The notes under the pieces are model-generated. The model saw only the letters and a program-made list of their open reading frames with translations, was not told the origin of the DNA and searched no databases. DNA of 64,000 nucleotides from assembly GCA_944381275.1 (NCBI GenBank), contig CALWKO010000004.1, positions 5,100 through 69,099 on the forward strand, given 5' to 3'. Below are positions 21,217 to 40,465 of this stretch, one piece after another. Position 1 is the stretch's first letter, and the number at the start of each line of letters is the position of its first letter. The DNA comes from an uncultured Clostridia bacterium (lineage in GTDB: Bacteria; Bacillota; Clostridia; Christensenellales; UBA3700). Made by a program: the position numbers and the translations under genes.

Positions 21217-22725
21217 TTACATGTCGTCGTCGGAGAAGGGCTTGGCGCCGCGGCGCAGCTTCTCTTCTTCCTCTTCTTCCGCTTCAAGCGCCGTATCGGC
21301 GTCCCCGGTGAGGGCGGCGGTCTCCCTGTCGAACTCGTCTTCTTGCAGCTTCAAGTCCTCTGCCGACACGGTTTCCTTTTCCTCCACGCGGTAGCCGTCC
21401 ATCGCCTCGTACAGCTTGTCGACGTTGATGACGAACTCCTTGCTTATATTCTCTTCCGCCACTATCTCCGCCTGCGCGCTGATAAATCCGTCGATGAACC
21501 TCTCCATCTCCGCATTGGTCAAACTGCCGGTGACGAGCTGCTGCAAGCTGTCTACGCCGATCCTCTCCATTATCTTGGCGAACAGGACGACGTTGATGCT
21601 GCACGAATTTATAAATGCCACTATGCCCTTTACCGTACGCAGCTTTTTCCTCGTCGCCTGAGATTGGTTCCTCATCCTGCGCAGCATTCTTTGCGCCTCG
21701 AGGCTGCTCTTTTGCAAGTCGGCGATCTCTTCCTTTATGCTGTTGTATCGCCTTATCGCCCTTTGCTTTTCCGCCGAGCCGGGCGCCAATTCGCCGTTCT
21801 TGTTCTTTAAAACTATATCCTGCTTTTCCTTTTCCAGTTCCGCCGTTTCTTCGTCGCAGCGCTTTATGTCCTGCTCGTATTCGAAGATATATTTGTTGAT
21901 GTTATCGTTAAGCATATTTTCCTGCGCCGCGATTATCGCCTGCGTGGAAGCCATGCTCTCGCGCAAATACGTTGCGCCCTTGACTATCCACGTCACATTG
22001 GTCATGGTGACGGACTTCATTGCCTCTTCAAAGGAGATGTTGTAGGTATTCAAATCGTCTTTTGAGGGCTTTTTGCCTATCTTGGTGATGGAACGCCACT
22101 GCCTTGCCTGCCTGAGAGCCTCTTCCAGGACGGCTATGTGCCTGCTTTCGCACGAGCTCGTCTTGCAGCACTGCACCCAATCGTAAATGGCGTTCACCAC
22201 GTCGTTAGCTTTCTTGAGCGCGTCCGCGGAGGTGTTATCCCACACTTCCTCTATCGTGCCGCGGAGTTCGCCGAGCAGCTCCTGCGACCTTTGAAAGTTG
22301 GCTATGCTTGCGGGCGTGAGCGCAACTTTTGCGGCGGCGTCGGCAGCCTTGTCGCAGAAATCCAAATATTTGATCACTTCACCTTTAAAGTCCATTTTGC
22401 CCTCCTTTATCTTGGGATTTTTTACTTCAGACAAGAGTTTTTCCCGTTTTTCCTTGTAAGTATTTAGCTTTTTTGCCGCTTTGGGCTCGCTTAATTTCAC
22501 CGCCAGGGAGATAAGGTCCTGTATGGCGTCCTTCTCCAGCTTGAAATCGTCGTTCATTCCCCTGCCGGCGAGCGCGTAGACGTCGTCCACCAGCACGTCG
22601 GAAAGCTCCTGACAGCCGTCGCTGCCGTAGCCGTTTGCGATGAGGTCGCAAAAGTCGTCGTCAAAGGACACTTCGTTGGCTTGAAGCACCTCGGCTATCC
22701 TGCGGATTTTTTCCTTTTTATCCAT
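21217..22725 (-). CDS. coiled-coil protein with a Snf7-like C-terminal half and an acidic tail
   Basis: GGAGG RBS is present and the start overlaps the upstream stop (TAATG). It has long heptad-like helices. The C-terminus reads ...MERFIDGFISAQAEIVAEENISKEF...EDEFDRE...EEEEEEKLRRGAKPFSDDDM. Confidence 0.8.
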   Translation of the reverse strand: MDKKEKIRRIAEVLQANEVSFDDDFCDLIANGYGSDGCQELSDVLVDDVYALAGRGMNDDFKLEKDAIQDLISLAVKLSEPKAAKKLNTYKEKREKLLSEVKNPKIKEGKMDFKGEVIKYLDFCDKAADAAAKVALTPASIANFQRSQELLGELRGTIEEVWDNTSADALKKANDVVNAIYDWVQCCKTSSCESRHIAVLEEALRQARQWRSITKIGKKPSKDDLNTYNISFEEAMKSVTMTNVTWIVKGATYLRESMASTQAIIAAQENMLNDNINKYIFEYEQDIKRCDEETAELEKEKQDIVLKNKNGELAPGSAEKQRAIRRYNSIKEEIADLQKSSLEAQRMLRRMRNQSQATRKKLRTVKGIVAFINSCSINVVLFAKIMERIGVDSLQQLVTGSLTNAEMERFIDGFISAQAEIVAEENISKEFVINVDKLYEAMDGYRVEEKETVSAEDLKLQEDEFDRETAALTGDADTALEAEEEEEEKLRRGAKPFSDDDM

Positions 22726-23849
22726 TAAAATCCTCCGTTTTGCACATATTCTGCCAATTTCTTTACGGCATCATTCATGGTGCCTATTTTGGATTTGCAC
22801 ATATAAACGTCGTCGTCGAGGAAGGTGAGGTCTTCGCCCGCGCCGCCGTCGATTATCGTCTTTACCGCGTCGTAACGTGAGGAAGTGAGCGCCTTTTGTA
22901 TCCTGCCCAAGGCGAACTTGCCGAAAAAGCGGTGACCGCCCTTTTCGTTGAAGAAGAACAGCCAATAGTCCGCTCCGTCCATCACTTCACCGTCTATGTA
23001 TTCGTTGAATCCCCTCTCGTTTTTAAGGGCGGTGAAGGTTTCGTCCATGCTCACCTTGCCGCTGTCCTCCGCCGCCTGAGCCGCCGCGACGAAAAGCCCC
23101 CTTCTGATCAGCTTGATGACGGTGTAACTGCCCACTCTCTTTTCTTTAAGCTCCTTCAGCTCGCCGCCGCTCAGCCGCATCACGCCGAAAAGCGGTGCGT
23201 TTTGGCGGGCAAAGCAGGACATCAGCTTGGAAAAAGCCTGCTCTACCGCGCTCTGCTTTATGCCGCTCACGAGCGGACGGGGGAATTCCACGCCCAGCCT
23301 TTCCTTGATCATCGCCAGGTTGTTTTCGTAATTGAACTTATCGCTGCTTGTGAGCTCTTCCGGCGCGGAGGCGAGCATTTTGAGCAGATACCCAGCCGCC
23401 TTTATGCGAATGGCGCGGAAGTCGTACACTCCCTTCACCCCTTCCTTTGCCACCTTGAGCTCGGAGGAAGCGTAGCACACCGCGCTGTAATAGGCGTATG
23501 CCGCGCGGCAGCGCGCCGCCTCGCTCTTGTTTACCTCGGTATAGTCCTTGTCGTAATAATACCCCAGGCGGACGACCGCTTCCGGATTGCCCATGGCGGC
23601 GGCTTCGCGGGTGAACTCTATCGCCTTTTCCAGCTGCTCGCGCACCCTTTCCGCTTCGCCGCGGGACGCCCCTTCCAGCCAGTTGTGGTAGCAGCATTCC
23701 GCCAGCTTGAAGAGCTGTTCGTTATCCGCGGTAATCTCAAAGTCGGACATAACTCCGCCCAGCTTTGCCTTGCAGTCGGGACACGCCCATTCCCCGTTAT
23801 ACAGTTCAAGGGGCTGTTCTATCGTATGCTTACATTTTTCGCAAATCAT
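22725..23849 (-). CDS. zinc-ribbon plus Sel1/TPR-like repeat protein
   Basis: The N-terminus is CEKC...x17...CPDC. A Sel1-like repeat follows: AAMGNPEAVVRLGYYYDKDY...EAARCRAAYAYYSAV. Confidence 0.8.
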   Translation of the reverse strand: MICEKCKHTIEQPLELYNGEWACPDCKAKLGGVMSDFEITADNEQLFKLAECCYHNWLEGASRGEAERVREQLEKAIEFTREAAAMGNPEAVVRLGYYYDKDYTEVNKSEAARCRAAYAYYSAVCYASSELKVAKEGVKGVYDFRAIRIKAAGYLLKMLASAPEELTSSDKFNYENNLAMIKERLGVEFPRPLVSGIKQSAVEQAFSKLMSCFARQNAPLFGVMRLSGGELKELKEKRVGSYTVIKLIRRGLFVAAAQAAEDSGKVSMDETFTALKNERGFNEYIDGEVMDGADYWLFFFNEKGGHRFFGKFALGRIQKALTSSRYDAVKTIIDGGAGEDLTFLDDDVYMCKSKIGTMNDAVKKLAEYVQNGGF

Positions 23850-23861: not shown

Positions 23862-26800
23862 TCACGCCTGCTCTTCTTCCTGCGCGGCGGCTATGGTAAA
23901 GTCCTTTCTTGCGCTGCCCGCGTCCACGGCGTAGTTATCGCTCGCGGAGCTTGCTGTCACATAGTACTCGCCCGCCGCGGAGGGCATGCCCTCGAGCGCC
24001 TGTCCTTCCTTGTTATAATAGGTATAGACGATAAAGGCTTCCGCGCCCTCGTCGCTCACCTCGGCGGAGGGAGCCTGCGGCTCGCCCGATTCGATAAACT
24101 CCTCGCCCCGCCAAGTGACGGTGACGGTCTTTGCCGTGATGTCGTATTCGCACTCCGCTCCTATCGCCGTATAGTTGGCGCTGCCTATGTTCGCCGTTAC
24201 GGTGTAATGCCCTGCGTCGGCGCCGAAGCCGCCGTAAGTTATATCCAAATCGTCCATATCGTCGGCGCTTGCAAGATTGTTTACGCTTTCAACTTTGGGA
24301 TACTGCGCCTCGCCGCTGTATTCAAAGGACGTTTCGCCGTCCCAGACGAGGGTGACTTCGCGCTTTGCTATGGTGAAGGCTGCGCTCTCGCCGCTTGTTA
24401 TCGTGTAGTTATCGTTGCCCAAAATCGCGGTCGTGACGTAATCGCCCGCGTCCGAGGCGCCGCCGTTGACGCGGTAAGTCAGATCCAGGGAATTAAGGCT
24501 GTCCCCTTCCGCAAGATTTTCCGCGCTCTCCACGACTATGCTGTTTCTCGTGCCGTCGTAGGTGAAGGTGCGCTCCTCCTGCCACACGAGCGTTACGCCG
24601 CGCTTTTCTATGGTGAACGAGGCGCTTGCGCCGCTCGTTATCGTGTAGTTATCGCTGCCCAAAACCGCACTCGCCGTGTACTCGCCCGCGTCCGAGGCGG
24701 AGTTGTTGAGGCAGGATATGTTTAAATCGGCAAGCTCTTCTCCGCTTGCAAGATTTTCTGCACTCACAACGGTTATGCTCTTTTCAGTGCCGTCGTAGGT
24801 GAAGGTGCGCTCCTCCTGCCACACGAGCGTTACACCGCGCCTTTCTATGATGAAGAGCGCACTGCCGCCGCCCGCTATCATGTAGTTGACATTGTCTGAG
24901 CCCAACCTTGCGGTCATCGTGTAATTGCCCGCGTTCACGGCGGTGCCTTCGGCAACGCCGGTATATAAATGCAAATCGCTCATATCGTCGCCTTCGGCAA
25001 GATTTTCCGCACGGAGCACGCTCAAGCCCTTATCGGTGCCGTCATAGATGAAGTTGCACTCCTCCTGCCACACGAGCGTTACGCCGCGGCGGGAGATGGA
25101 GAAGGAGTATGTGTCGTAAGCGGCGTTGAGCTCGTAGTTTTCCGCATCCAGCGTGACGGTCACCGTGTAACCGCTGCCGGCGTTAACCTGCCCTCCGCCG
25201 TAGACAAGGCTGCCGAGCAGCATCTGCTCGTCCTCATCGTTCAGCGCGCCGGGTATCTGCGTGACCGCGGGGTGCTGCTCCCGCCCGTTGTATACAAAGC
25301 TGTTGGTATCCCAATATGTGGTCGCCACCGTGCGCTTGCTTATTTCGTAAGTATAGGTCTGCGCGTCGCTGAAGACGTAGTTGCCCTCGGGCAAGGTGAC
25401 TTCCACCGTGTGTTCGCCCGCATTTACGCCGCCGCCCGATATTATCGAGTAGGAGAGGGAGCGGATAATGCTCGTTTCCTCGCCCGTAACTTCCCCGTTT
25501 ATGCTCTGCACGGCGGGGTTTTGGACGGAGCCGTTATATGAATAACTAACCCCTTCGCGCCAATTGACCGTTATGGGGCGGGCGGTTATCGTCACCTGCG
25601 CGGTGGGATTGGTCAGGATATAATTGCCGCTTGCCAAAGTTGCGCGCACGGTGTACTGCCCCGCGTTTACGGGATTTCCGCTCAAGGTGTATTCAAGAGC
25701 TCCGTCTTCCCCTATGCCCTGTATCGTGACGGCGGGATATTGCGCCGAGCCGTTATATACGAAGGATAGGGTCGAATCCCACTGCGCGCTCACCTCGGCG
25801 CGAGCCACGGTAAAACTCACGCTCGCGGTGGCGGCGGATATTGAGTAGTAATCGCCCGAATCGCTCGTAAGATATACGGATGCGGTATAATTGCCCGCAT
25901 TCCTCACCGCAGCGCCCGACATGGCGTACTGTATCTCGTTGCCGTCCACTTCCGCGCCTTCCTCGGGGGCGCAGATCGCCGTTTGACTGAATCCCGTATA
26001 TTCGCTAGGCAAGGTCCACTCGAAATCCACCGTCTTTTTAGCCACGTTGACGTAGACCGCCGCCGTGGTTTCCCCTTGCAAGGAGGTTATCTCGGGAGCG
26101 GACGCGGTCACCGTGACAGAGTAGTTCCCGCTGTTGAACGGGGCGAGGAGGCCCAGGTCCACGCTCTGCCCGCTCTCCGCCGAAGTTATCGCCGCGCCCT
26201 GCCAATCGTAGGCAAGGCCGAAGCCCTCCGCGGGAGCGGTGACGTCGGCGCCGAGCACCACCTCATCGCCGTAGGTGAAGGAAGTGCCGCCCGTGATCGT
26301 TATCACGCTGTCGTTCACCTTCCACTGAGGGAATACGTATATCTCGTTAGAAGAGGTAGACGCCGAGCCGAGGAGCTGACTGAACGGCGTCCTCATGTTC
26401 AGCTGCGTTCCGCCCTCATACCAGGTATAATTCCAGCTCTCGACCGAAAGTCCCTCGCGCGCGGGAATGCTCTCGAGCAGCTCGTCGGCGGTGGAGGGCA
26501 CGGCGTAGCGATATTCCAGCGTCTGCCCTTCCAGCTCCGTATTCTTATATGTGAGCGCCGTTTCGTACACCTCGTCGTTGTCCTCGCCGATGTACACCCT
26601 GTACACCCTTTCAAACGACGCTTGCAGCGACATACCCTCGGTTATCCGCATATCGGTCATCGCCGCGCCGTAATCGTTCACGGGGCCGGAGAAGATGTAT
26701 CCGCCGAAGTTGACATCGCACCAATACAGGTCGGCAGCCGAGTTCTTATCCGAGTGCAGCATATAGGGGAAGTCCTCTTCGTACTCGCTTATGTCGAAGA

Positions 26801-27773
26801 TTTCCCCGCTCCTGCCGAACCAGGTGGGCAGTATCTCGCCCTCGACAATGCCGTACGATTCGCGGTCGTATTTGAAGGTGACGTAAACTTCCCCCTCGTC
26901 CAAATTGCAAGGCAGGATGTTCGCCGCCACGGAGAACAGTTCATCGCTGTTTTCCTCGTCTGCGGCGGCATAGAAGTTGGTGCGCAAATCGTCTATCTCC
27001 CCTTTATCCGCATAGATAACGGGGAAGAAGCCCGTGTAATTATTCAAAAGACTCACGTCCTCTACGGCTATATCCGCATCCGCTTGGATATATACGCTTT
27101 CTATGCCCTCCTGGGTGAACAGTCCCGCGCTGACCGCGCTCACCTTCTTGCCGTTGAAGGTTTGCGGAATGACGACGTTTTCGCCCTTGCCCTCGAGCGC
27201 GCTCTTTACCTCGTAACTGTCCGTTGCGCTGTGATAGGTATATGCCAAGGTGCGGTTTTGGTCGCCGAACTGCTGACCGAAGAAGCCGCGGTCGAACAAG
27301 AACGCGGAATACACCGCCGCCGCGCACACAATAACCGCCACGCATATTACGGCAAACACGGCGTTAAAGCCCTTGAGCTTTGCCGCATACAATGAGGTGA
27401 GGATGATGACCGCCGCCGAGACGAGGTGCATGACCATCCAAAGCGCCGTTGCCGCCGTGGTGAGGGCGGAGCCGGAGCCGGAATCTCCGCACACGGTTAT
27501 GCCCAGCACGCTTAAAATTATCGCCGCCAGCGCATAGCCCGCCGCCACTCCCGCGGAATAGCGGAAGCGGAAGTTGGTGAGCGCCGCCAAAATAATGAGC
27601 GCGATGTCGAAGGCGAGCAGCAGGCAGGGCATGATGAAGTAGAGCGGAGCAAAGCCGCCCACGCCCAGCACGGCGACGGCGAATATGTCCGCCGCCGCAG
27701 CCGCCGCTGCCGCCGTGAGGACGGGCCACTTGCGGCTTTTTATCATCTTTTCCGTTAAAGTCGCGCTTTTCAT
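23862..27773 (-). CDS. polytopic membrane-anchored giant surface protein with an LRR_5-like segment and many MBG-type repeats
   Basis: AAGGAGGG RBS is present and an ATGA overlap links it to the upstream gene. The N-terminal ~170 aa contain 5-6 hydrophobic helices. At least 10 repeats of the type ..F.YDG......V......NAG.YT.T..L...NY.I follow. Confidence 0.85.
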   Translation of the reverse strand: MKSATLTEKMIKSRKWPVLTAAAAAAAADIFAVAVLGVGGFAPLYFIMPCLLLAFDIALIILAALTNFRFRYSAGVAAGYALAAIILSVLGITVCGDSGSGSALTTAATALWMVMHLVSAAVIILTSLYAAKLKGFNAVFAVICVAVIVCAAAVYSAFLFDRGFFGQQFGDQNRTLAYTYHSATDSYEVKSALEGKGENVVIPQTFNGKKVSAVSAGLFTQEGIESVYIQADADIAVEDVSLLNNYTGFFPVIYADKGEIDDLRTNFYAAADEENSDELFSVAANILPCNLDEGEVYVTFKYDRESYGIVEGEILPTWFGRSGEIFDISEYEEDFPYMLHSDKNSAADLYWCDVNFGGYIFSGPVNDYGAAMTDMRITEGMSLQASFERVYRVYIGEDNDEVYETALTYKNTELEGQTLEYRYAVPSTADELLESIPAREGLSVESWNYTWYEGGTQLNMRTPFSQLLGSASTSSNEIYVFPQWKVNDSVITITGGTSFTYGDEVVLGADVTAPAEGFGLAYDWQGAAITSAESGQSVDLGLLAPFNSGNYSVTVTASAPEITSLQGETTAAVYVNVAKKTVDFEWTLPSEYTGFSQTAICAPEEGAEVDGNEIQYAMSGAAVRNAGNYTASVYLTSDSGDYYSISAATASVSFTVARAEVSAQWDSTLSFVYNGSAQYPAVTIQGIGEDGALEYTLSGNPVNAGQYTVRATLASGNYILTNPTAQVTITARPITVNWREGVSYSYNGSVQNPAVQSINGEVTGEETSIIRSLSYSIISGGGVNAGEHTVEVTLPEGNYVFSDAQTYTYEISKRTVATTYWDTNSFVYNGREQHPAVTQIPGALNDEDEQMLLGSLVYGGGQVNAGSGYTVTVTLDAENYELNAAYDTYSFSISRRGVTLVWQEECNFIYDGTDKGLSVLRAENLAEGDDMSDLHLYTGVAEGTAVNAGNYTMTARLGSDNVNYMIAGGGSALFIIERRGVTLVWQEERTFTYDGTEKSITVVSAENLASGEELADLNISCLNNSASDAGEYTASAVLGSDNYTITSGASASFTIEKRGVTLVWQEERTFTYDGTRNSIVVESAENLAEGDSLNSLDLTYRVNGGASDAGDYVTTAILGNDNYTITSGESAAFTIAKREVTLVWDGETSFEYSGEAQYPKVESVNNLASADDMDDLDITYGGFGADAGHYTVTANIGSANYTAIGAECEYDITAKTVTVTWRGEEFIESGEPQAPSAEVSDEGAEAFIVYTYYNKEGQALEGMPSAAGEYYVTASSASDNYAVDAGSARKDFTIAAAQEEEQA
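24132..25091 (-). repeat. intragenic tandem repeats (four units of about 234-249 bp) encoding MBG-type domains
   Basis: The units start (K/R)RGVTLVWQEE(R/C)(T/N)F(T/I)YDGT. The DNA string CCTCCTGCCACACGAGCGTTAC recurs near 24586, 24820 and 25066. Confidence 0.85.
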
Positions 27774-29473
27774 TTACGTCCCTCCTTTCCCCCGCTCAGC
27801 GCCTTTCGCCTGCGGCGCGCGGGAGTTATGGGCGCGGGTAGATACCCGTCTTTTTCCAAATCCTTTTTGTCCAAAATATACCTGTCCTGTCCCATAAAGA
27901 ATACCATCATATCTTCGTCTTCAAAGCACATCTTCCTTTTGCCGATATACCTTATGCGCGTTATCGGCGAGAATACGGAAGCATACTTGGAATATCTCTT
28001 TTTGCCCTCTTCTTCGTTTTTGGAGCGGGAAGAACACAGCGGGCAGGCGTTGGTGTTCTCCATGACCGCGGCGGAAAACTTCCTGCCGCAGTAAACGCAC
28101 TCTCTCACCTCTTCTTCCGTCATGGTCATCTTGTCGCGGGCAAAGCTCGTGTTGGGGGTGTAATGCAGTCCGCCCTCGCCGTCCTCGTAGACCATCTCCG
28201 GATAAGGGCAGTCCTTGCACGCCATAACGGGCTTTTCCGCCGTGCCCATGTTCTGCAGCTGTACGGCGCACACGCAGCGGGTGCAACCGCCCTGCACGCG
28301 CGGATTTTTCGCGCAGGTAATGCTCTGCAGGTGCTTGGATATTTCGCTGTACTTCAATATCTTATCCACCTGCTCTTGGGTAAGTCCCAGGTTGTATTCC
28401 GCGGGCTTGATGACTATCTCTTCCCTCACGGGGTTGCCGTACCTGTCGCGATAGCGGCAAACTATCTTGTCGTTGTCGATAAGCGCTCCGCCCGTGCCGC
28501 AGTTTTCGCACATTAGGGTGATGCTGCCGTTTATGCTCACCATGGCGCGCAGCACGCGCTTGTCGCCGCGATACACGAAGTAGGCGTTGCTCGTCCACCT
28601 CACGTGGGATATGCCCAGCACGGATATGTTGCGGCAGTCGAGGCACGCCTCGTCGTGCGAGAGTTTTTCCGCAAGTTCGTTCACCGTCTGCATGTCCCTT
28701 TCGCCGAACATTATGCACTCGTCGAAGGTGCGCTCCGACTTGCCCTTGAGCAGCTGATCGAGCGCGAATATGGCGGCGTCTATCAAGCTCGAGGAGCCGG
28801 ACGAATCCACCCGTGAGGAATTCCCCTCCGGGATGACGGAGTAAAGGCTCTTGTATATCTCCTCCGCCTCTTCCGCGGGGATGGGGACGAGCTTTCCGCC
28901 CGCCGCGCCGCCGCGCATGCGGAAGTAAACGCTGCCCAGCACGGGCACGGAAGCGCCCGTTCCGCCCGAGATCTCCGCCTTTAAGGATATGCCGTATATG
29001 TCGTCCGGCACGCTCTTTTCCCTGGCGCCGGAAATCTGCGCCCCGGGCAGGGAGGAGAAGAACAAGGCGAGCACGCTCTCCAGCACGTTGCGGCAGCGCC
29101 GCTCGTCCTCTTCGTCTATGGCGGAAGCGCTCTGCTTGAATTCGAGCAGGGAGTACTCCTTGTGGTACGCTTTTGCCACGCTCTCGATAAAGCTGAGCCA
29201 TTGAGCGGTGCCGTCGCCCGTCTCCTTCTCGCCGCTGCGCAGTCCCGCAAACCAGCTTGCGCCCGCGGGGGTGAAGCACATGGCGCTGCCCGAGGCGGCG
29301 GAAGACGAGGCTTCTTCCGAGTACTTGAAGACGTGCGTTTGAGTGACTATCTTCCTTTCCTTTTCGTCCACTTCCTTCACGTGTACGTCGGCGTAGGGCA
29401 CGCTGCCTTTAAGCAGTTTACACACGCTCTCGAAGGCGTTTTTATATTCCTTTCCTACCAATATCTCTTTCAT
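27770..29473 (-). CDS. multi-zinc-ribbon protein of unknown function
   Basis: GGAG RBS is present. It has several CxxC pairs (CENCGTGG...C, CTRCVCAV...CKDCPYPE, CVYCGRK...CPLC). No family is recognised. Confidence 0.8.
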   Translation of the reverse strand: MKEILVGKEYKNAFESVCKLLKGSVPYADVHVKEVDEKERKIVTQTHVFKYSEEASSSAASGSAMCFTPAGASWFAGLRSGEKETGDGTAQWLSFIESVAKAYHKEYSLLEFKQSASAIDEEDERRCRNVLESVLALFFSSLPGAQISGAREKSVPDDIYGISLKAEISGGTGASVPVLGSVYFRMRGGAAGGKLVPIPAEEAEEIYKSLYSVIPEGNSSRVDSSGSSSLIDAAIFALDQLLKGKSERTFDECIMFGERDMQTVNELAEKLSHDEACLDCRNISVLGISHVRWTSNAYFVYRGDKRVLRAMVSINGSITLMCENCGTGGALIDNDKIVCRYRDRYGNPVREEIVIKPAEYNLGLTQEQVDKILKYSEISKHLQSITCAKNPRVQGGCTRCVCAVQLQNMGTAEKPVMACKDCPYPEMVYEDGEGGLHYTPNTSFARDKMTMTEEEVRECVYCGRKFSAAVMENTNACPLCSSRSKNEEEGKKRYSKYASVFSPITRIRYIGKRKMCFEDEDMMVFFMGQDRYILDKKDLEKDGYLPAPITPARRRRKALSGGKEGRK

Positions 29474-29477
29474 AAGC

Positions 29478-32306
29478 TCACTCCGTCCTGTCGTTAGCCA
29501 AAACGGCCTTTATATCCGCGACCTTGTCCGCTTCCGCAAGCAGATTGCTGCAAAAAGCCCTGCCGCCGTCGTGCGTGTACTGCCATGCCGCGCGTATGTA
29601 AGTGGCGAAGGTGCGCGCCACGATGGGGCGCAGCACGCCCTCCTTGCACATGGGGCACTTTGCCTCCCACCTTTCGTTGAATTCCAGCACATGCGGCCTG
29701 GGGACGCACTCGGCGTATTCGCAAGTTGAGCACGCCTTTATGGCGTCCTTTCCGCTCACCACATTCCCGCCGCCGTCCTTTCTCCAGAATTTACAGTCGT
29801 CGGGGCATTCGTAACGATTGGCGCACTTGTAGCACAAAAGCGCGAGATCCGCGTCCTCTATATCGGGGGTCTTGCGGTAAGCGCTCAGCGCCTGGCACCA
29901 ATCTTCGCCGTTCTCCTTGCACTGCTTTTTAAAGAAGGAGCAGTGGGACATGGCGCATATCTTGCGGCAGTAAACGCTCCTGTCGCCCCTCTCCCCGCTG
30001 TTGCACATAATGCCCTTATCCGTATTGTTGGCGGCAAGGCACATATAGCCTTCGTCCGTGACCGAGCGGGCGAACACCTTGTCGCAGTCGCTGCACTTGA
30101 AGTCGTAAACGCTTATCTCCTCCATCTTGGTGCCCTTGGGGTCGTCCTGACGGCAGAGCTGAGTTTCGCGGCAGTAAAGCTCGTCCCTCTTCTTTTTAGC
30201 CTCGTAATCTTCCAGCGAGTAAAGCTTCACGCTCCTGCACACGGGGCAGCGCACGGTGACCATGCGCTCGCTGTTGCTGCCCGCGATTATGGTGGCGTCG
30301 CCGCTGCTGCTGTACATCAGCCCTATGCGCAAAAAGTACATGAGCACATAGCCTTCCAGCTTGTTCATCTGCGCGAGCGAGTATATATGCACCTGCTTTT
30401 CCGTTTGACCCAGGCGGAAGATCCTGCCTATCCTCTGGTCCATGGAGAGGGGATCGGGGGTCACCTCGAAGTTGATTATGATGGAAGAAGCCTGCAAGTT
30501 GACGCCCTCGGTGAAGGAAGGGTCCTCTATCACGAGTATGGCGTCCTCTTTTTTATTGAACTTTTCCACCGTCTTGTTCTTGTTCAGCGCGCCGCCTTCC
30601 AGCACTCTGCCGGCAAAGCGTTCGTCCTTGGCAAGCTCTTGGACAAAGCGTTTTGGTTCGGCGGCGGGATCCTTCACGTCGTAGTCGAAGAATACCAAAA
30701 TGCGCTTGCCCGCATGCTTTTGCAAAATCTGCTTGGCAACTTCCGTCTTCTGCGCAAAGCAGTCGTTTTTGCAGTTGTAGGGCACTATGCGGTAGCGCGC
30801 CTCGTCGGGGTCTATCTTCGCCATTTGGCTGCCGTAATAGGTGCCCGAATTGCTCTTTTCGAATATATCTTCCGGCATGCCCACGGCGTTTATTATGTTG
30901 ACGCTCACCATGTCCGCATACGCCTGGGCAAAGCTCTTGCTGCCCCTGTTGTCCTCGATATACTTACTTAAAGACATCACTTCCCCGTCCTGCGCGGTCA
31001 CGGCTTTTTCACCATAGAGGTTGGCGAGGTCCACCTTCACCCTGTCGCCCGCTATGCCGCCCGTTTCTATCACCCCGGGGGCGTTTTTCATGGGGAAGAA
31101 CAGGAAGTTGTGCAGCACCTTGCTCTTGTTTATGGTGTTGGGCTGGCGGATCATTATCGAGCGCAGCACGCCGTTGTGATAGGCGCTTGCAACGCGGTCG
31201 AGCACGTTCTTTTTTATATCCTTGCCGTCTTTTTTATATCCCTTGTCCAAAAAGCTCTGCACGTACAGGAACTTTTCCCCTTCGGTGAGCCCGTTGAAGT
31301 CCTTCACGCCTTCACCCTTAAGGTAGACGGCAAATTCCTCGGGATATTCCTCGCACACCGCCTTTATCTTCACCTTTTTGATGAACTCCATTACGGTGGC
31401 GGCGCCGTAGCAGATGTGGTTTTTATAATACTCCTTTTCCTTGCGGTACTGCTCGGTGCGGTTCATGTCGTCCTTCTCGTCGAAGTCGGAGGGGTTGCCG
31501 CCGCTGCAGCGGATGAAGTACCACAGGCGGAACATGTGCTCCAAATTGCCCGTGTGAGGGGTGGCGGAGAGGAGAAGGCAGTAGGTGGAATCCGCCTGCT
31601 TTTTGGTTTGAATCATGAGCGAAAGCAGCTTCATCGCCCTGGCATACTTGCCCTCTTCCGCGCACAGGTGGTGCGCTTCATCCACCACTATCACGTCGAA
31701 GAGCAGCCTGCTGGTGTCCTCCGGCCAGGAGACGAAGTCCTCTGTTTTGACTATCATGGGGCGCTTGGGGCGCAGGATGTTTTCTCCCACGTGCTCGCAT
31801 TCGATGCTCGATATATCCAAGTTGCCGCCCTCTTCTTCAAGCACGCCCTTGCCCAAACCGAACTGAACTTCCAGCACCTCCTTCCACGTGCCGTAAACTT
31901 GGTCGGGCACGATGAGGAGCATGGAGTGCAGCTTGCCCCTTGCTGCAAGCTCGCTTAACACCACGCACGCTTCGTACGTCTTGCCGCTGCCCACCACGTC
32001 CGCGAGCAGTCCGAAGCCGCGCAAATCCCTTAAAAAGGAGAGCGCAGCCACCTTTTGATGACCCAAGATGACGCTGTCGTTAAAGCCCGTCTTTACGGGT
32101 ATGCCGTACTCGCCGCCCTTTTTGGCGTAGGAGGCGGGATCTATTTTGAAAAAGCCGAAGTCGTCGTATCTGTCCAGCTCTTCCACCGCCTTATTGGTTT
32201 CGTAAACGCCCTTGTTGAACGCCTTCTTATTCGTGGATATGCCCGCCCTTTGCATATCCCCGTCGAATGCCGAGTCCTCTACCTTGATTTTAAAATTCCT
32301 CTTCAT
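29478..32306 (-). CDS. SNF2-family helicase with a Cys-rich C-terminal extension
   Basis: It has LLADVVGSGKTYEA, VIVVDEAHHL, LLLSATPHTG and GVNLQASSIIINFEVTPDPLSMDQRIGRIFRLGQ. The last ~280 aa contain more than 25 Cys. The start is set at ATG 32306, preceded by GAGGTGG. An alternative ATG at 32318 overlaps the upstream stop. Confidence 0.88.
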   Translation of the reverse strand: MKRNFKIKVEDSAFDGDMQRAGISTNKKAFNKGVYETNKAVEELDRYDDFGFFKIDPASYAKKGGEYGIPVKTGFNDSVILGHQKVAALSFLRDLRGFGLLADVVGSGKTYEACVVLSELAARGKLHSMLLIVPDQVYGTWKEVLEVQFGLGKGVLEEEGGNLDISSIECEHVGENILRPKRPMIVKTEDFVSWPEDTSRLLFDVIVVDEAHHLCAEEGKYARAMKLLSLMIQTKKQADSTYCLLLSATPHTGNLEHMFRLWYFIRCSGGNPSDFDEKDDMNRTEQYRKEKEYYKNHICYGAATVMEFIKKVKIKAVCEEYPEEFAVYLKGEGVKDFNGLTEGEKFLYVQSFLDKGYKKDGKDIKKNVLDRVASAYHNGVLRSIMIRQPNTINKSKVLHNFLFFPMKNAPGVIETGGIAGDRVKVDLANLYGEKAVTAQDGEVMSLSKYIEDNRGSKSFAQAYADMVSVNIINAVGMPEDIFEKSNSGTYYGSQMAKIDPDEARYRIVPYNCKNDCFAQKTEVAKQILQKHAGKRILVFFDYDVKDPAAEPKRFVQELAKDERFAGRVLEGGALNKNKTVEKFNKKEDAILVIEDPSFTEGVNLQASSIIINFEVTPDPLSMDQRIGRIFRLGQTEKQVHIYSLAQMNKLEGYVLMYFLRIGLMYSSSGDATIIAGSNSERMVTVRCPVCRSVKLYSLEDYEAKKKRDELYCRETQLCRQDDPKGTKMEEISVYDFKCSDCDKVFARSVTDEGYMCLAANNTDKGIMCNSGERGDRSVYCRKICAMSHCSFFKKQCKENGEDWCQALSAYRKTPDIEDADLALLCYKCANRYECPDDCKFWRKDGGGNVVSGKDAIKACSTCEYAECVPRPHVLEFNERWEAKCPMCKEGVLRPIVARTFATYIRAAWQYTHDGGRAFCSNLLAEADKVADIKAVLANDRTE

Positions 32307-32314
32307 AATCCACC

Positions 32315-34468
32315 TCATTCGCTCATTGCGTCAAATTCTTCCATGCCTTCGAACCTGAGCTCTATTTCGTCGGCGGGGACGACGGTTTCGTTTTTCGTCC
32401 AAATATCCCTGTCTTCGTCGAGCAAGTAATGCACCCTTGCCATTCTTCCGAAATTGTCCACTTTGTTATTTAAGATGATGGGCGTTGCCACGCCGTCGGC
32501 GTCTATCCTAACCCCTTCGCGGTAGTAGATGAAGGTGTTGATAAGGCTCACCCTTATCCCCTTGTGGTAGTAGAATATGCGCGAATCCCTGCCGCCGGAA
32601 ACCACCCTGAGCCCCAAGTACTTTTCCAGATTGGAGCGCCACTTTTTTTCGCTTTCGCTGACCGTCGTGCCCGACTTTTCCACATACACGTATCTTTTGC
32701 CGCCGCCGCCGTAAGTCTGCCCGCGCATTTCCGGATGCGACCGCGCCGTTTCGTATACTTTCTCTCTCCTTACGGTGAGGGAATATATCTCGTCCCCTTC
32801 CGTGCACTTGACTTCGCCCTCCTTCAGCCCCAGCCTGCAGGGGAAGGTGAAGACGTTCAAGCCGTCGCTGCGCAAGACCTGCCCTTTGCCGGCTATCATG
32901 GCGAGCATCTTGTGTCCGTGGAGGACCTGCTCTGCTTCGGTGGGGAATTGAGGATAAGACCAGGAGGCGTAGGTGAGCGAGAGGCACACCTTTATTTGAA
33001 TATCCTCCAGCGCGACTATCGCCGCACCCACGGCGGCGGCGTAGGTGGAATCCTCGTAAGTGCCGATGGAAAACCCGTCCTGCCCGTCCTTTTCTTCGTC
33101 GAAGGTGATTATCTCCGCGTCGGCGTTTGCCTTGTGCACCCGCTGCTTTATGTAATCGAGCAAACCGTACGTTTCGGCAAGTCCGCCCGATATTATCATC
33201 TTCTTCACGTCCTTGTTTATTTCAAGCGCAAGTTCGTTAATGATGTAGGCGGCTATCTCCTTGGCAACCCCGACCTTGCCCGAGCCGAGCCCTATGCATG
33301 CCACGAACGCTTCGCGCGTCAAGCTGCGCTGAATGTGCACGTCCCTGACCAAGTTGACGGGCACTCCGCCGGGGAATATCTCCTTGCTTTGAGGCACGCT
33401 GAGCAATATCTTCGCCTTTTTTATGTTCTTCATAAAGAGGTATTGCTCTTCCCTAAGGCCCCTTTCCACGATGTGCCCTTCCTCGCCGTAGGAGGGGGTG
33501 CCCATCGTTTCCCTGTCCTTTATCTCCTCTTCTATGTGCTCGGCGACCGCCCTGTCCACGTCGTTGCCGCCTATTTCGCAGGGCGCGCTGTGGCCGTCCG
33601 CGCCGTCGATGATCAGTTCGCCCATGCCGTCCACATTGGCGCGCGTGACGGAGATATCCGTTTCGCCCAAATCGAACACGAGCGCGGAATCGTTCCTGCC
33701 TATCATCCCGCGGTGCATGGCGTAAATGCTGAGCGCCTTGGTGGAGCTGAGCGATTTTTCCGGCGCACGGCCGAAGGCTTTCTCGATAAGGCGCTCCAGC
33801 TCCTGCTGATACTCCTTGCACGCGCCGGAGGGATAGATGGCGGCTATCTTTATCTGCCCGGCGAAGGCAAGGGATTCCGTTTTGAATCCGCGCAGCGCGC
33901 CGCGCAAAATCTCATCGCCCTGCCTGCCGTTCTTTATCTCCTCCACGTCCTTTTTTACCTTGGCTTCAAGGGCGGGAATGCGCGCAGTGATCAGCTTTGC
34001 CACGTATTCAAAGAACTTTTCGCACACGCTCTGTGGCGAAATGCCCCCGTCGAAGGTCATCTTCATGCTGACCATCTCGTTGAAGTCGGAGAGCACTTTC
34101 CTGCTCACGGGAAAATAAAACTTGGGGAACATCGTCCCCTCGCGATAAAACTTGGCGTTGCGCGCGCGTATTTCCGTTGCCTGCTTCCTGCCGCCCTTCC
34201 CCGCGGGCACATGGGAGAGCATGCCCAGCAACGTCTTTATCTTGACAACGGTGGTGAAAGAAGAAGATTTTTCCCTGCTCACATCATAGCCGAAGCTCCA
34301 TTTGCCCTCCTGCTCGTCGTAGTAAGCGATGGCGGGTACGGCAACTTCGGTAGGCAGACTTTCTTTGGAGATCTTTCCGTAAAAAACCTTTCCTGCCAAA
34401 TCAAAGGCATACGCCGCCTTTAAGGTGTCGCTGCCCAGATCCAAGCCGATGTTTAAGGTAATACTCAC
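32315..34468 (-). CDS. Hsp70/actin-fold ATPase (DnaK/HscA-like NBD) with a divergent C-terminal domain
   Basis: It uses a GTG start with GGGGG 8 nt upstream. Phosphate-1 is IGLDLGSDT, phosphate-2 is LVFDLGETDISVT, and the adenosine motif is IISGGLAETYGL. No canonical DnaK substrate-binding or EEVD region is evident. Confidence 0.88.
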   Translation of the reverse strand: MSITLNIGLDLGSDTLKAAYAFDLAGKVFYGKISKESLPTEVAVPAIAYYDEQEGKWSFGYDVSREKSSSFTTVVKIKTLLGMLSHVPAGKGGRKQATEIRARNAKFYREGTMFPKFYFPVSRKVLSDFNEMVSMKMTFDGGISPQSVCEKFFEYVAKLITARIPALEAKVKKDVEEIKNGRQGDEILRGALRGFKTESLAFAGQIKIAAIYPSGACKEYQQELERLIEKAFGRAPEKSLSSTKALSIYAMHRGMIGRNDSALVFDLGETDISVTRANVDGMGELIIDGADGHSAPCEIGGNDVDRAVAEHIEEEIKDRETMGTPSYGEEGHIVERGLREEQYLFMKNIKKAKILLSVPQSKEIFPGGVPVNLVRDVHIQRSLTREAFVACIGLGSGKVGVAKEIAAYIINELALEINKDVKKMIISGGLAETYGLLDYIKQRVHKANADAEIITFDEEKDGQDGFSIGTYEDSTYAAAVGAAIVALEDIQIKVCLSLTYASWSYPQFPTEAEQVLHGHKMLAMIAGKGQVLRSDGLNVFTFPCRLGLKEGEVKCTEGDEIYSLTVRREKVYETARSHPEMRGQTYGGGGKRYVYVEKSGTTVSESEKKWRSNLEKYLGLRVVSGGRDSRIFYYHKGIRVSLINTFIYYREGVRIDADGVATPIILNNKVDNFGRMARVHYLLDEDRDIWTKNETVVPADEIELRFEGMEEFDAMSE

Positions 34469-34499
34469 TTTTATTCCCCCTATTATTTATACAATATAC

Positions 34500-34528
34500 A
34501 TTCTATCACACTTCGACAATAAACGCAA
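34500..34528 (-). promoter_or_regulatory. candidate promoter of the 11-gene operon
   Basis: On the minus strand it reads TTGCGT, a 17-nt spacer, then an extended -10 (TGaTAGAAT). It lies about 30 nt upstream of GTG 34468. The -35 is weak. Confidence 0.35.
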
Positions 34529-34607
34529 CAATTTTCTACAAATTAAACTTAATCTAAAAAAGAAGTTGTAATAGTTACAACTTTTTAATACTTGACATAC
34601 GTAGGCA

Positions 34608-34637: not shown

Positions 34638-34656
34638 CGATCTTTGCTTTTTTCGG

Positions 34657-34704
34657 CGGGTTACCCGCACACGAGCGCGGCGGGTTACCCGCACACGAGC
34701 GCGA
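34657..34704. repeat. perfect 24-bp tandem duplication in the carB-dapF 3' region
   Basis: GCGGGTTACCCGCACACGAGCGCG occurs twice, back to back. Confidence 0.9.
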
Positions 34705-34847
34705 CGGAGCGGTTTTAGCGAGGTAGGTTTCGTTCGATTTTGCACGAGATGACGCGAAGTTGTAGCAGCGCTACTACGAGTCGGCATATCGTGTAAAAGC
34801 GGGCGGAAGGTGCCCGCTTAAACCGCTCCGCCGCGGTCGGGGGCGGG

Positions 34848-37800
34848 TTATATCTCTACGCTTCCCTCGAATACCTTTACCGCGTTGCCGGTCATATATA
34901 CGGCGTCGTCGGTGTAGTTTACGGTGAGGTCGCCGCCCAGCAGGCGCACGGTGATGTCCTCGCCCTTCTTGCAATAGCCGTTGAGGCAAGCCGCCACCGC
35001 CGTGGCGCAGGCGCCCGTGCCGCAGGCGAAAGTTTCGCCGCTGCCGCGCTCCCACACGCGCATTTTAAGGGTGTGTTCGTCCAGCACCTTTACGAATTCC
35101 ACGTTCACTCCCTCGGGGAAGAGTTCGCTCTCTTCAAAGGCGGGGCCAATTTTGGCTATATCCAGGTTGTCCACGGCGGGCAGGAAGACCACGCAGTGGG
35201 GGTTGCCCATGGAAACGCACGTGACGTTGTAGTCCTTGCCGTCCACGCTCACGGTGCGGTCGATCACGCTCTCTCCGCTAAGATTGACGGGCACGGACGC
35301 GGGCGCGAGCTCCGCCTTGCCCATATCCACGCGCACTTGAATGACTTCGCCCGCGCGGGTTATCACCTTTACGTTCTTTATGCCGGAGAGCGTTTCTATC
35401 GTGAATTCCTTCTTGTTCACCACATGGGTGTCGTAGATGTACTTTGCCACGCAGCGAATACCGTTGCCGCACATCTTGCCCTCGGAGCCGTCCAGGTTGA
35501 ACATGCGCATCTTGGCGTCTGCTACCTTGGAATCGCAGATGAGGATGACGCCGTCGCCGCCTATGCCGAAGTGCCTGTCCGAAAGCCTGACCGCGAGTCC
35601 TTCCGGATTGTCGAGGTCGTTGCCGTTCATGCAGTCGAAGTAGATGTAGTCGTTGCCGCAGCCTTCCATCTTCACAAAGTTCCTCTTCACCTTGCCCGTG
35701 CGCAGTTTGTTGATGTCCACAAGCTCGGTGTTGTATTCGGAATAGCGGCTCATAAGGCTGTTCACCACCGCCTCTGCGGTATCGATGGAGGTGAGGCAGG
35801 GGATGGCACGCTCTATCGCCTTGCGGCGTATCTTCACGCTGTCACGCGTGGGCAGCTTGCCCTTGGCGGAAGTGGAGATGATGTAATTCACCTTGCCGCT
35901 TTCGATGAGCGTCAAGTTGTTGTCGAACTGGTTTTGGTGTATTTTCGCCACGACGTGCACGTCGATTCCCGCCTTTTTGAGCACGTTTGCGGTGCCCTCG
36001 GTGGCGTAGATGGTGTAGCCGAGGTCGTCGAACTTCTGCGCTATTTCGCCTATTTCACCCTTGTCCTGGTCGCGGACGGTGATGAACACGCCGCCCTTCT
36101 TGCGCATCTTGTAGCCCGCCGCCACAAGACCCTTGAAGAGCGCTTCTTCCAGGGTGGAGGCGATGCCGAGCACTTCGCCGGTGGACTTCATCTCCGGTCC
36201 CAGCTGGGTATCCACGTTGCTCAGCTTTTCAAAGCTGAACACGGGCACCTTGACCGCCACATAGGGGGAGTTGCGGTAAAGCCCCGTCCCAAAGCCCATA
36301 TCCTTGAGCTTTTCGCCCAAGATGGCGCGGGTGGCAAGGTCCACCATGGGTATGCCCGTAACCTTGCTGATGTAGGGCACGGTGCGGGAAGAGCGGGGAT
36401 TGACCTCGATGACGTAGAGCTCGCCGTGATAGATGAGGTACTGTATATTCACAAGTCCTATCGTGTGCAAGGAGAGCGCCAGTCTGCGCGAGCAGTCCAC
36501 TATCCTATCTATCATCTCGTCGCTTATGTTCCAGGAAGGATATACGGCTATCGAGTCGCCCGAGTGGATGCCCGTCCTTTCTATGTGTTCCATAACGCCG
36601 GGGATGAGGATGTCCTCTCCGTCGCAGATGGCGTCCACTTCTATCTCCGTACCCATGAGGTACTTATCCACGAGCACGGGGTTTTCTATCTTCTGCGCCA
36701 AGATGACGTCCATGTATTGCGAAACGTCCGCTTCGGAATAGCATATCTCCATGTTCTGCCCGCCCAGCACGTACGAGGGGCGCAGCAGTGCGGGATAGCC
36801 TATCTCGCCCGCCACCTTGATGGCTTCTTCCTTGGTCATGACGGTGTAGCCGCGGGGGCGCTTGATCTCCAGCTCTTCCAGCAGCTCGTCGAAGCGTTCC
36901 CTGTCCTCCGCCATGTCGATGTACTCCGCCTGGGTGCCGAGTATGGGGATGTTCTTCTTGCGCAGCATCTTGGTCAGCTTGATAGCCGTTTGACCGCCGA
37001 ATGCCACCACCACGCCGTCCGGCTTTTCCGTGTTGATTATCGAGAGCACGTCCTCGTTTGAGAGGGGCTCAAAGTAAAGCCTGTCGGCGGTGTCGAAGTC
37101 GGTGGAGACGGTTTCCGGGTTGTTGTTCACGATGACCACTTCATATCCCTTGGCTTTGAGCGCCCACACGCAGTGCACGGAGGCGTAGTCGAATTCTATG
37201 CCCTGACCTATCCTGATGGGTCCGGAACCGAAGACTATCACCTTCTTTTTCTTGCTCTTCAAGTTGTCGATGAACTCGCGCGCTTCGTTCTCGTCGTCGT
37301 AGGTGGAGTAGAAGTAGGGCGTTTGCGCGGCGAATTCCGCGGCGCAGGTGTCCACCATCTTATAGGAAGCGTACCTGGGATGTTCCACCTTCTGCCCGCT
37401 TATGTTCTCGATGGTGGAATCGAGGTAGCCCATCTTCTTGGCGCGCAGGTAGAGCTCGTCGGTGAGCTTGCTTGACTTGAGCTCCCTGTCCATCTCCACC
37501 AGCTTTTTCAGCTTGGCGATGAACCAGGGGTCTATCTTGGTTATCATGTTGATCGCGGAGATCTCCACTCCCCTCTTGAGCGCTTCGTAGATGACGAAGA
37601 TGCGCTCGTCGTCGCAGTCGTGCAGTTTGTCCCACACCTGCGAATCCGTCCAGGAAGCGTACTTTTTGTCCGTAAGGCAGTCCTTTGAAATCTCCGCGCC
37701 GCGCACCGCCTTCATGATGGCTTGTTCGAAGGTGGTGCCTATCGCCATCACCTCGCCCGTGGCTTTCATCTGCGTGCCCAGCTTGCGGTTTGCGTAGTAG

Positions 37801-40391: not shown

Positions 40392-40420
40392 TTTACTTTT
40401 TTGCGTAAAAATTTTATACT
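40392..40420 (+). promoter_or_regulatory. candidate promoter for glnN
   Basis: TTTACT, a 17-nt spacer, then TATACT, about 45 nt upstream of ATG 40466. Confidence 0.3.
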
Positions 40421-40465
40421 GATTCTGTATTTATTTTTTATGCGCGCACAAAGGAGAGCACAATT

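Follow-up and report, generated by a model that had tools for sequence, protein, structure and literature searches.

An operon of 11 genes, numbered here g1 to g11, occupies positions 10913 to 34468 on the minus strand of a 64,000-nucleotide (nt) stretch of DNA from an uncultured Clostridia bacterium (assembly GCA_944381275.1, contig CALWKO010000004.1, positions 5,100 to 69,099 of the forward strand). This whole stretch is referred to below as the window, and all coordinates are positions within it. The operon covers 23.6 kb and 7,823 codons. It is proposed to encode one membrane-anchored, multi-ATPase machine of 10 to 11 proteins, and the foremost reading of this machine, held with about even confidence, is that of a new conflict or defence system acting against phages or other mobile DNA. 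Neither a name nor a description of the operon was found in Pfam, PADLOC, NCBIfam and PHROGs or in the papers that were searched. Six of the 11 proteins are without a family match in Pfam, NCBIfam, PADLOC and PHROGs, the libraries scanned, with g1 giving sub-threshold scores only. In public records the proteins appear under the names “hypothetical protein”, “Hsp70 family protein” and “DUF4011 domain-containing protein”. An earlier note on this DNA had drawn attention to the first three genes, which encode an Hsp70-like ATPase (g1), an SNF2-family ATPase with a cysteine-rich tail (g2) and a multi-zinc protein (g3), and had suggested that this trio may be a sensor or remodeller sub-complex.

The operon is conserved as a unit in other genomes. 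A search with g1 returned 97 homologue clusters (30–62% identity, nearly all full length) and a search with g3 returned 70. Loci were fetched through different anchors, namely g1 (L001–L003, L008 and L009), g3 (L010–L022), g7 or g9 (L004–L007) and, in the case of conspecific samples, the neighbouring carA gene (L023–L028). The 11 proteins of the window were compared by blastp with all open reading frames (ORFs) of the fetched loci. As far as the contigs extend, all loci show the order g1-g2-g3-g4-g5-g6-g7-(g8)-g9-g10-g11. The trio occurs in this order in all 15 of the informative, independently anchored loci from other species, at 24–79% identity, and collinearity holds with identity as low as 21–35%. 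No gene is absent from any locus, with the exception of g8, which is a duplicate. The flanking genes differ among lineages and the conserved block is exactly g1–g11. These flanks are of a housekeeping nature, including TrkAH, PPDK, OTCase and AP endonuclease upstream, and galT and an aminotransferase downstream.

The earlier note had proposed co-occurrence in other genomes as a check on the trio, and the three genes are indeed linked in every other genome examined. The idea of a separate sub-complex fared less well. The trio is never found alone and always forms the 5′ end of a fixed operon of 10 to 11 genes. There are no loci with the trio and without g4 among those long enough to show the next gene, and g9–g11 were never seen without the upstream genes in the loci examined. 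As the trio is never autonomous, its phyletic pattern provides no evidence for a separate g1–g3 sub-complex.

The operon is confined to one group of uncultured gut Clostridia, as placed through the names of a few metagenome-assembled genomes (MAGs). The named MAGs with homologues are Candidatus Borkfalkia, Candidatus Coproplasma, Clostridia or Clostridiales bacterium and one Roseburia sp. A scan of a genome collection with alignment patterns of g7 and g8, which were over-specific, returned two loci, both from close relatives; the genome-collection loci come from one Candidatus Alloclostridium MAG and one uncultured Clostridia MAG. Exact-sequence look-ups of g9 and of the permease gene next to the operon gave no match.

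Within the window, the genes are closely coupled, with intergenic distances from −4 to +14 nt across g1–g11. The span 27770–34468 holds exactly three minus-strand ORFs, g1–g3, lying back to back as previously described. All three are long, and with 70–97 full-length homologue clusters each they are well past chance. Their stops and starts had been placed 4–8 nt apart. The close spacing stands, but the distances are −4, +4 and −4 nt from g1 through the start of g4, which g3 overlaps by 4 nt; a value of +8 nt arises only at the g1–g2 junction, when the 942-amino acid (aa) g2 start of the gene caller is used.

The signals at the two ends of the operon agree with this arrangement. A promoter-like region and leader, as read from the sequence, lies at 34482–34540 on the minus strand. 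It comprises a TTGCGT element (34528–34523), a 17-nt spacer and TG-n-TAGAAT (−10 element at 34505–34500), in an AT-rich stretch. A scan tool reported an overlapping sigma-70-like match at 34509–34482, and a GGGGG ribosome-binding site is located approximately 8 nt 5′ of the GTG start of g1. Just upstream of the promoter-like region, a strong minus-strand terminator (34638–34612) ends the carB-dapF gene. The operon is closed by a terminator-like hairpin at 10705–10727 (minus strand, 10 paired bases of which 7 are G-C). This hairpin is bidirectional and is common to the end of the operon and to the convergent permease gene. The interior of the operon contains only weak minus-strand hairpins of 5–7 pairs. 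Since strong terminators are located only at both ends and there is a single promoter-like site, the unit is considered to run from 10913 to 34468.

The first gene, g1 (32315–34468; this and all other operon genes are on the minus strand), begins with GTG and encodes a divergent Hsp70-like ATPase of 717 aa, assigned by fold and motifs. A nucleotide-binding domain (NBD) covers residues 1 to approximately 490, and a beta-rich C-terminal domain covers approximately 490–717. The three Hsp70 motifs reported earlier are all present, IGLDLGSDT at residue 7, VFDLGETDISVT at 264 and IISGGLAETYG at 425, and are conserved among 26 homologues. With the Pfam HSP70 model g1 obtains 17.4 bits, short of the cut-off of 20.6, and with the NCBIfam DnaK model 17.3 bits, where the cut-off is 822. 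A phmmer search of the PDB with g1 gave no match, and the family profile matches DnaK weakly (E 0.014), in the phosphate-2/connect region. The Hsp70 phosphate-2 loop, FDLGGGTFDV in DnaK, is replaced in the g1 family by the consensus FDLGeeDis, or DLGE(E/T)D, within which G268 and E269 are nearly invariant. The claim that g1 is not an orthodox DnaK, HscA or HscC is thus upheld by the sub-threshold Pfam and NCBIfam scores.

AlphaFold2 models were made for g1 and g3. The g1 model has a mean predicted local distance difference test score (pLDDT) of 85 and a predicted template modelling score of 0.83. When searched with Foldseek against the PDB, its top 50 matches were all Hsp70 or Hsp110 chains, including DnaK and BiP, at E 4e-18 to 8e-14. 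On this model, the NBD of g1 is of the actin/Hsp70 fold. It had been stated that the C-terminal part does not resemble the substrate-binding domain (SBD) of DnaK. By sequence this is correct, as the Pfam match ends near residue 429, but by structure it is doubtful, as the model aligns over some 720 columns to full-length Hsp110, DnaK and BiP. The query-normalised template modelling (TM) scores are 0.43–0.46 for full-length chains versus 0.37–0.38 for NBD-only chains. Because the full-length chains score higher, the modelled C-terminal 228 aa may form an SBD-beta-like sandwich. In the model, as assigned by DSSP, this part is beta-rich with short helices only and has no helical lid. Neither a DnaJ nor a GrpE domain was found in the operon or in those ORFs of the window that were scanned, in agreement with the absence noted earlier. 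The operon has neither a J-protein nor a nucleotide exchange factor, though the genome beyond the window may still encode such partners.

The second gene, g2 (29478–32318), encodes an SNF2-family ATPase of 946 aa, identified by Pfam and by motifs. Its SNF2 core is complete, as had been noted, with GSGKT at residue 110, DEAHH at 213, SATP at 251 and QRIGRIFRLGQ at 628 (motifs I, II, III and VI). SNF2-rel_dom scores 31.2 bits against a cut-off of 24.9 and Helicase_C 37.8 against 23.5; ResIII is also above its cut-off. Among solved structures, RapA is nearest, at E 1e-10. The best profile matches are to DrmD, BrxH, HmaA and DpdE, all far below their equivalog cut-offs. The core is followed by a C-terminal multi-zinc tail of approximately 255 aa (residues 691–946). 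A count of more than 25 cysteines had been given for the tail; the actual number is 23, at residues 691–923, out of 32 in the complete protein. In six homologues of 35–70% identity, some 20 of the tail cysteines are conserved, and the cysteines would be enough for five to six zinc sites.

The third gene, g3 (27770–29473), encodes an orphan multi-zinc protein of 567 aa that is recognized by its invariant cysteines and histidines. Its N-terminal region is alpha/beta, the central region is beta-rich and carries the Cys/His residues, and a small domain lies at the C-terminus. There are six CxxC knuckles, four pairs of which are invariant (322/325, 419/422, 459/462 and 477/480). C280, H290, H381, C397, C402 and C516 are invariant as well, resulting in a total of 12 Cys and 2 His across 28 family members. 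From this invariant set, about three zinc sites are predicted, possibly four. This corrects the earlier description of at least four zinc ribbons. No family match to g3 was found in Pfam, NCBIfam, PADLOC or PHROGs. Foldseek found no significant match to its model (pLDDT 78), the best being E 0.057 in the PDB and E 0.0066 in BFVD. CheX-like and INO80-chain matches were considered and dismissed (E 0.06–1.2, TM below 0.2). The family counts 163–228 representatives among 1.84 billion proteins, and its full-length members, approximately 510–690 aa and mostly 540–620 aa long, share one architecture.

The trio is followed by g4 (23862–27773), which encodes a membrane protein of 1303 aa with a Pfam MBG_3 match above cut-off. 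The hydropathy profile and the positive-inside rule indicate five N-terminal transmembrane helices with the N-terminus inside and the C-terminus outside. The ectodomain is large and is built of leucine-rich repeat (LRR)-like and MBG repeats, the latter immunoglobulin (Ig)-like. As its length varies, the whole protein ranges from 975 to more than 1770 aa. Conserved features of g4 are an NFRFRYS cytoplasmic loop, an Asp in the second transmembrane helix, a His in the fourth and GFFGQG after the fifth. Judged by these residues, g4 is read as a functional membrane component rather than a passenger adhesin. The next protein, g5 (22725–23849, 374 aa), was described from an alignment of 11 orthologues. 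Its N-terminal part carries a CxxC...CxxC ribbon and its C-terminal domain an invariant DDD, and there is also a Sel1-like repeat. The ribbon has been lost in three lineages, and the Pfam Sel1 and zinc-ribbon matches are weak and found in single members only. The charged protein g6 (21217–22725, 502 aa) is recognized by its position and its orthologues. It is probably helical, with a presumed coiled coil, and it matches no family of Pfam, NCBIfam, PADLOC and PHROGs. Of all the operon proteins it evolves fastest (dN 0.53 against L010), with orthologues that are 21–38% identical and always in the same position.

The g7 protein (19288–21213, 641 aa) carries a C-terminal HExxH...E, gluzincin-like metallopeptidase motif. 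Its paralogue g8 (17377–19278, 633 aa), 33% identical by pairwise alignment, has the same HExxH motif. The pattern HExxH(A/S)xQ ... E(A/S/G)DA.AF..(D/E)C is conserved in 17 of the 17 orthologues and paralogues checked. A similarity to SprT recurs below threshold in four of nine members, with a best E of 0.019, and is considered a lead, not a result. A profile search of the PDB returned only noise. The duplication is present only in the near relatives of the window and in L006, where the second copy is highly divergent and only putatively of the HExxH type; most lineages have one copy (L007 and L011–L019 were looked at).

The largest protein, g9 (12859–17367, 1502 aa), is a superfamily 1 (SF1), Upf1-like helicase with DUF4011, AAA_11/AAA_12 and a C-terminal MTES_1575 (Vsr-like) domain. 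In PADLOC, it matches PDC-S37 at 3e-111 (residues 878–1499) and Hhe at 7e-53 (1050–1486). Its Walker A and DEAS motifs are conserved. At the position where, by eye, the first catalytic Asp of the nuclease-like domain is expected, there is an invariant Pro, making the predicted nuclease activity uncertain. The helical protein g10 (12085–12846, 253 aa; alignment of five orthologues) has a stretch of basic residues, a tail of low complexity and, at its C-terminus, a conserved (I/F/Y)DD(I/V/L) motif, seen as an IDDIA-type tail. The last gene, g11 (10913–12070), encodes a single-ring, classic-clade AAA+ ATPase of 385 aa (Pfam AAA 3e-32). It has an N-terminal helical region of approximately 100 aa, Walker A and Walker B motifs and a YVG pore loop. 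Its best PDB matches are the D2 domains of VAT, Cdc48 and p97, at E 5e-64, and PADLOC IetA matches at 3e-32. It is the most conserved protein of the operon, with orthologues 60–88% identical. A reading of g10 and g11 as ESCRT-III/Vps4 (or PspA/Vipp1) found no support, since the g10 orthologues gave nothing against Snf7 or PspA, even at E up to 5, and g11 is nearest to Cdc48/VAT D2; the Vps4_C match of g11 is below threshold. The g10 profile found only noise in the PDB, and g10 matched no other family.

The reading as a conflict system is favoured by the affinities of three of these proteins: the best matches of g2 are DrmD, BrxH, HmaA and DpdE, those of g9 are PDC-S37 and Hhe, and g11 matches IetA. 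Fast protein evolution, the many orphan families with their narrow distribution, g4 as an integral membrane component and defence-type genes nearby are counted in its favour as well. The roles given here to the individual proteins are all proposals, placed on an observed frame of composition, gene order, coupling, distribution and evolutionary rates. It is proposed that g4 lies in the membrane with its LRR/Ig-like array outside the cell, and that its conserved cytoplasmic loop is an anchor or a sensor. The g2 protein would be a double-stranded DNA translocase, and the zinc sites of its tail, together with g3, would form a platform that binds DNA or partner proteins. The g1 protein would function as an Hsp70-type ATP switch with an altered phosphate-2 loop, and without a lid, J-protein or exchange factor. 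By clamping or releasing part of one of its partners (g2, g3 or the loop of g4), it could gate activity. Downstream of the trio, g9 would unwind or attack the target nucleic acid, and the g7/g8 peptidases would remove or destroy proteins together with the Cdc48-like unfoldase g11, which the C-terminal tail of g10 may recruit.

A more far-reaching version of this proposal is offered tentatively, and with less than even confidence. It holds that the operon encodes an undescribed immune or surveillance machine found across the clade, in which an extracellular LRR/Ig-like receptor on a five-helix membrane anchor is wired to four cytoplasmic motors (Hsp70-like, SNF2, SF1 and Cdc48-like), three zinc-rich proteins (the g2 tail, g3 and g5) and metallopeptidases. 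The g1 protein would be the switch on the SNF2 motor and not a chaperone, and the pair would be a bacterial counterpart of the eukaryotic pairing of SNF2 with actin-fold ATPases.

A number of observations weigh against a defence role. The operon is found at the same site in five conspecific samples, its inheritance appears vertical and stable, and no presence/absence polymorphism was seen in the loci examined. The window contains no integrase or transposase and the neighbours of the operon are housekeeping genes. The GC content is 0.55–0.59 in the operon, equal to that of the flanks. The operon lacks a methyltransferase or any other marker of self and non-self. In g9, the nuclease-like domain does not reach the Pfam cut-off and, by eye, seems to be without the usual first acidic residue. 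The case for defence draws on evolutionary rate and on profile matches that relate three of the 11 proteins to defence-type families, and the roles suggested for g1, g3 and g4 are conjecture. The rate itself can be read in two ways. In comparison with a congener, CarB-DapF is 97% identical and the permease 93%, and the operon proteins are 40–83% identical, with dN/dS values of 0.13–0.33 in the operon and 0.03–0.08 in the flanks. Synonymous divergence is of the same order in both, at dS 0.95–1.7 in the operon (2.4 for g6) and 0.6–0.9 in the flanks. The simplest reading is a shared vertical history in which the operon proteins evolve 3–10 times faster than the flanks. Given the comparable dS, this is simpler than an allelic swap, and allelic replacement or a swapped hypervariable locus was rejected on these grounds. 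Such fast evolution fits an arms race but also fits relaxed constraint.

Some of these points favour a lineage-specific housekeeping machine, which would serve envelope-coupled maintenance of the chromosome or nucleoprotein, or would remove DNA-bound proteins by means of the SprT-like peptidase, the Cdc48-like unfoldase and the helicases. Stable inheritance at a fixed site, housekeeping flanks in every lineage and the lack of mobile-element hallmarks all accord with it. Furthermore, the operon is present in all loci examined, and together with the sizes of the g1 and g3 families this suggests that it may be near-universal in the clade. The weakly SprT-like g7/g8 and the Cdc48-like g11 recall the eukaryotic Wss1/SPRTN-Cdc48 pairing. 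Nonetheless, a housekeeping machine is considered unlikely, although it is the most probable of the rival explanations. Its proteins would have to evolve several times faster than the housekeeping genes beside them, six orphan families are confined to one clade, g1 reaches no curated threshold, and defence-type models are the top matches for g2, g9 and g11. A variable surface protein is built into the operon, and the SprT-like similarity is sub-threshold. The order and content of the operon also bear on the idea of a mosaic of co-travelling units (the trio, a surface adhesin, an Hhe-like helicase and an IetA-like ATPase pair), with the trio as a small system of its own. In the PADLOC models, Hhe and PDC-S37 each consist of one gene and IetA is part of a pair, defence genes often cluster, and outside the cell g4 resembles an ordinary adhesin. 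A mosaic is nevertheless improbable, as the same order and content recur across more than 15 independent lineages at the lowest identities seen, start and stop codons overlap or nearly abut, only the g8 duplicate is ever missing, there is one strong terminator per end, g4 always follows the trio, and g9–g11 always accompany the upstream genes.

It could be argued that a prophage, plasmid or integrative element carries the operon as cargo, as the cluster is large and rich in orphans, the left end of the window has a low GC content (0.44), and genes for a TIR protein and UzuA are nearby. This was given a very low probability. The g1 profile found no relative in IMG/VR, tblastn gave no match when 50,697 phage records were searched with g1 and 72,556 plasmids with g3, and the orphan proteins of the operon have no match in PHROGs; a phage, plasmid or element origin was rejected on these searches. 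In addition, tRNA and Rfam scans of the window found nothing, there is no integrase, the GC content does not differ from that of the flanks, and the contigs, up to 537 kb long, show chromosomal housekeeping genes flanking the operon. An orthodox Hsp70 chaperone (DnaK, HscA or HscC), with its partners elsewhere and an incidental linkage to g2 and g3, would explain the overall Hsp70/Hsp110-like fold of g1, beta-rich C-terminal domain included, and one homologue has been auto-named “Hsp70 family protein” in UniRef. The probability of this explanation is close to nil. It is opposed by the scores below the Pfam and NCBIfam cut-offs, the lack of a phmmer match in the PDB, the weak profile match to DnaK, the replacement of the GGGT phosphate-2 loop, the absence of a helical lid from the model and the invariant linkage to g2 and g3, and it is in effect ruled out by scores and synteny together.

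The earlier note could name no system with this trio, and none was found in PADLOC, NCBIfam, PHROGs or the literature searched. A literature search on the gene combination brought up only CoCoNuT and GTPase-Hsp70-tubulin conflict systems, neither of which holds the trio. In Type III CoCoNuT systems, CnuD is a non-chaperone Hsp70-like protein with NBD and SBD, degenerate ATPase motifs and no co-chaperones; these systems also contain an Upf1-like SF1 helicase, zinc ribbons and coiled coils, with a Cdc48/SpoVK-like AAA+ ATPase present in some of the extended versions (Bell et al. 2024, PMC11090510). Type III CoCoNuT is the nearest described theme, sharing the Hsp70-like protein and the Upf1-like helicase with the operon, with g1 and CnuD compared by description only. 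However, the McrB-like NxD GTPase, McrC/DUF2357 and the HEPN or tandem nucleases of CoCoNuTs have no match in the operon at the thresholds used. CoCoNuTs are without a core SNF2 ATPase, a surface protein with five transmembrane helices and HExxH proteins, whereas the operon has all three.

Zorya consists of the ZorAB membrane complex and the ZorC/ZorD SNF2-type helicase. It has four genes and is not known to have an Hsp70-like, AAA+ or SF1 component. The likeness to Zorya is that a membrane component is encoded with a cytoplasmic motor of the SNF2 family, which would act on invading DNA. However, g4, with its large array of extracellular repeats, does not resemble MotAB, there is no match to ZorA, ZorB or MotA in the operon, and g2 matches ZorD at 14 bits against a cut-off of 1500. 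The SNF2 proteins of DISARM (DrmD), BREX (BrxHI/HII) and Dpd (DpdE) are the best-scoring on the two helicase lobes of g2, yet they remain below equivalog cut-offs (107 bits against 610 for DrmD, 96 against 500 for DpdE). The multi-zinc tail of g2 lies outside the DrmD, BrxH and DpdE family matches. None of the partners of these systems (methyltransferase, PglZ/BrxC, DrmA/B/C and DpdA–C) was detected in g1–g11.

The g9 protein resembles Hhe and PDC-S37 in its DUF4011, AAA_11/AAA_12 and Vsr/MTES_1575-like architecture, and Hhe itself has been annotated as a DUF4011 protein (PMC11232893). In contrast to g9, which is the ninth cistron of a fixed operon, Hhe and PDC-S37 are stand-alone genes, and their matches are limited to the C-terminal half to two-thirds of g9. 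A likeness to IetAS is seen in the IetA match of g11 and in the putative proteases g7 and g8. The NCBIfam model of IetA (IteA) scores 103 bits on g11 against a cut-off of 510. IetS is a subtilisin-like protease. The proteases of the operon are HExxH-like and not adjacent to g11, and there is no subtilisin-like protein in the operon.

The INO80 and SWR1 remodellers of eukaryotes combine an SNF2 motor with actin-fold ATPases (actin and Arps, of the Hsp70 NBD superfamily), Rvb1/2 AAA+ hexamers and zinc-finger subunits. The resemblance of the operon to these complexes is an analogy only, with no evidence of homology past the superfamily level, and g1 is Hsp70-like and not actin-like. The INO80 and SWR1 chains among the Foldseek matches of g3 are non-significant, at E 0.8–1.2.

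The host genomes are small, and 7,823 codons are spent on this one operon, in which four mechanistically different ATP-driven motors are encoded together. If the operon serves defence, it would represent a new architecture that joins an extracellular receptor to motors remodelling DNA and proteins, along with a new chaperone-independent role for an Hsp70-like protein. If it serves housekeeping, it would point to unfamiliar cell biology in abundant uncultured gut bacteria (Borkfalkia, Coproplasma, Alloclostridium and relatives). Either way, there are testable objects: an SNF2 protein with a tail of five to six predicted zinc sites, the g3 fold that has no match in the PDB or BFVD, and the candidate tail-unfoldase pair of g10 and g11.

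Several further observations concern the surroundings of the operon. Approximately 3 kb past its 3′ end, an ORF at 7010–7861 (minus strand, 283 aa) matches UzuA of the Uzume defence system in PADLOC at 4.8e-64 over its full length and has no Pfam match. It has a 4-nt overlap with the stop of the zinc-dependent alcohol dehydrogenase-like gene upstream (7858–8964). A TIR_2 domain fused to an S-adenosylmethionine (SAM)-dependent methyltransferase is encoded at 1199–2518 (plus strand, 439 aa), and its TIR part weakly matches ThsB-like and SAVED-TIR models in PADLOC. The gene after it, at 2557–3795 (plus strand), encodes a protein with an HD domain and a match to the dGTPase model of PADLOC at 7.5e-38, and the two genes may form a small defence locus. 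The presence of UzuA, the dGTPase-like HD protein and the TIR-methyltransferase within 10 kb of the 3′ end of the operon gives a weak hint of a defence neighbourhood. In a distant relative (L008, 2860–4505), an AAA_21 ATPase of 372 aa and a 176-aa partner lie approximately 5.5 kb upstream of the operon; these may be an unrelated small defence pair.

On the upstream side of the operon, the large subunit of carbamoyl-phosphate synthase is fused in frame to a complete diaminopimelate epimerase (DapF) in a 1348-aa ORF (34848–38894, minus strand). The same carB-dapF fusion was called in L010 and in the conspecific contigs L023–L027. Two repeats lie between the carB-dapF stop and the terminator, in the carB–g1 intergenic region, neither with an Rfam match. 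One is a perfect tandem duplication at 34654–34701, with two copies of the 24-nt unit CGGCGGGTTACCCGCACACGAGCG. The other is a 33-nt inverted repeat (34688–34847) that is 85% complementary, with arms 94 nt apart. Further upstream, an ORF at 40466–42559 (plus strand) encodes a type III glutamine synthetase of 697 aa, and an overlapping ORF of 481 aa on the minus strand (40289–41734) has no family match. The glutamine synthetase is probably the real gene, with GSIII_N and Gln-synt_C called in conspecific contigs.

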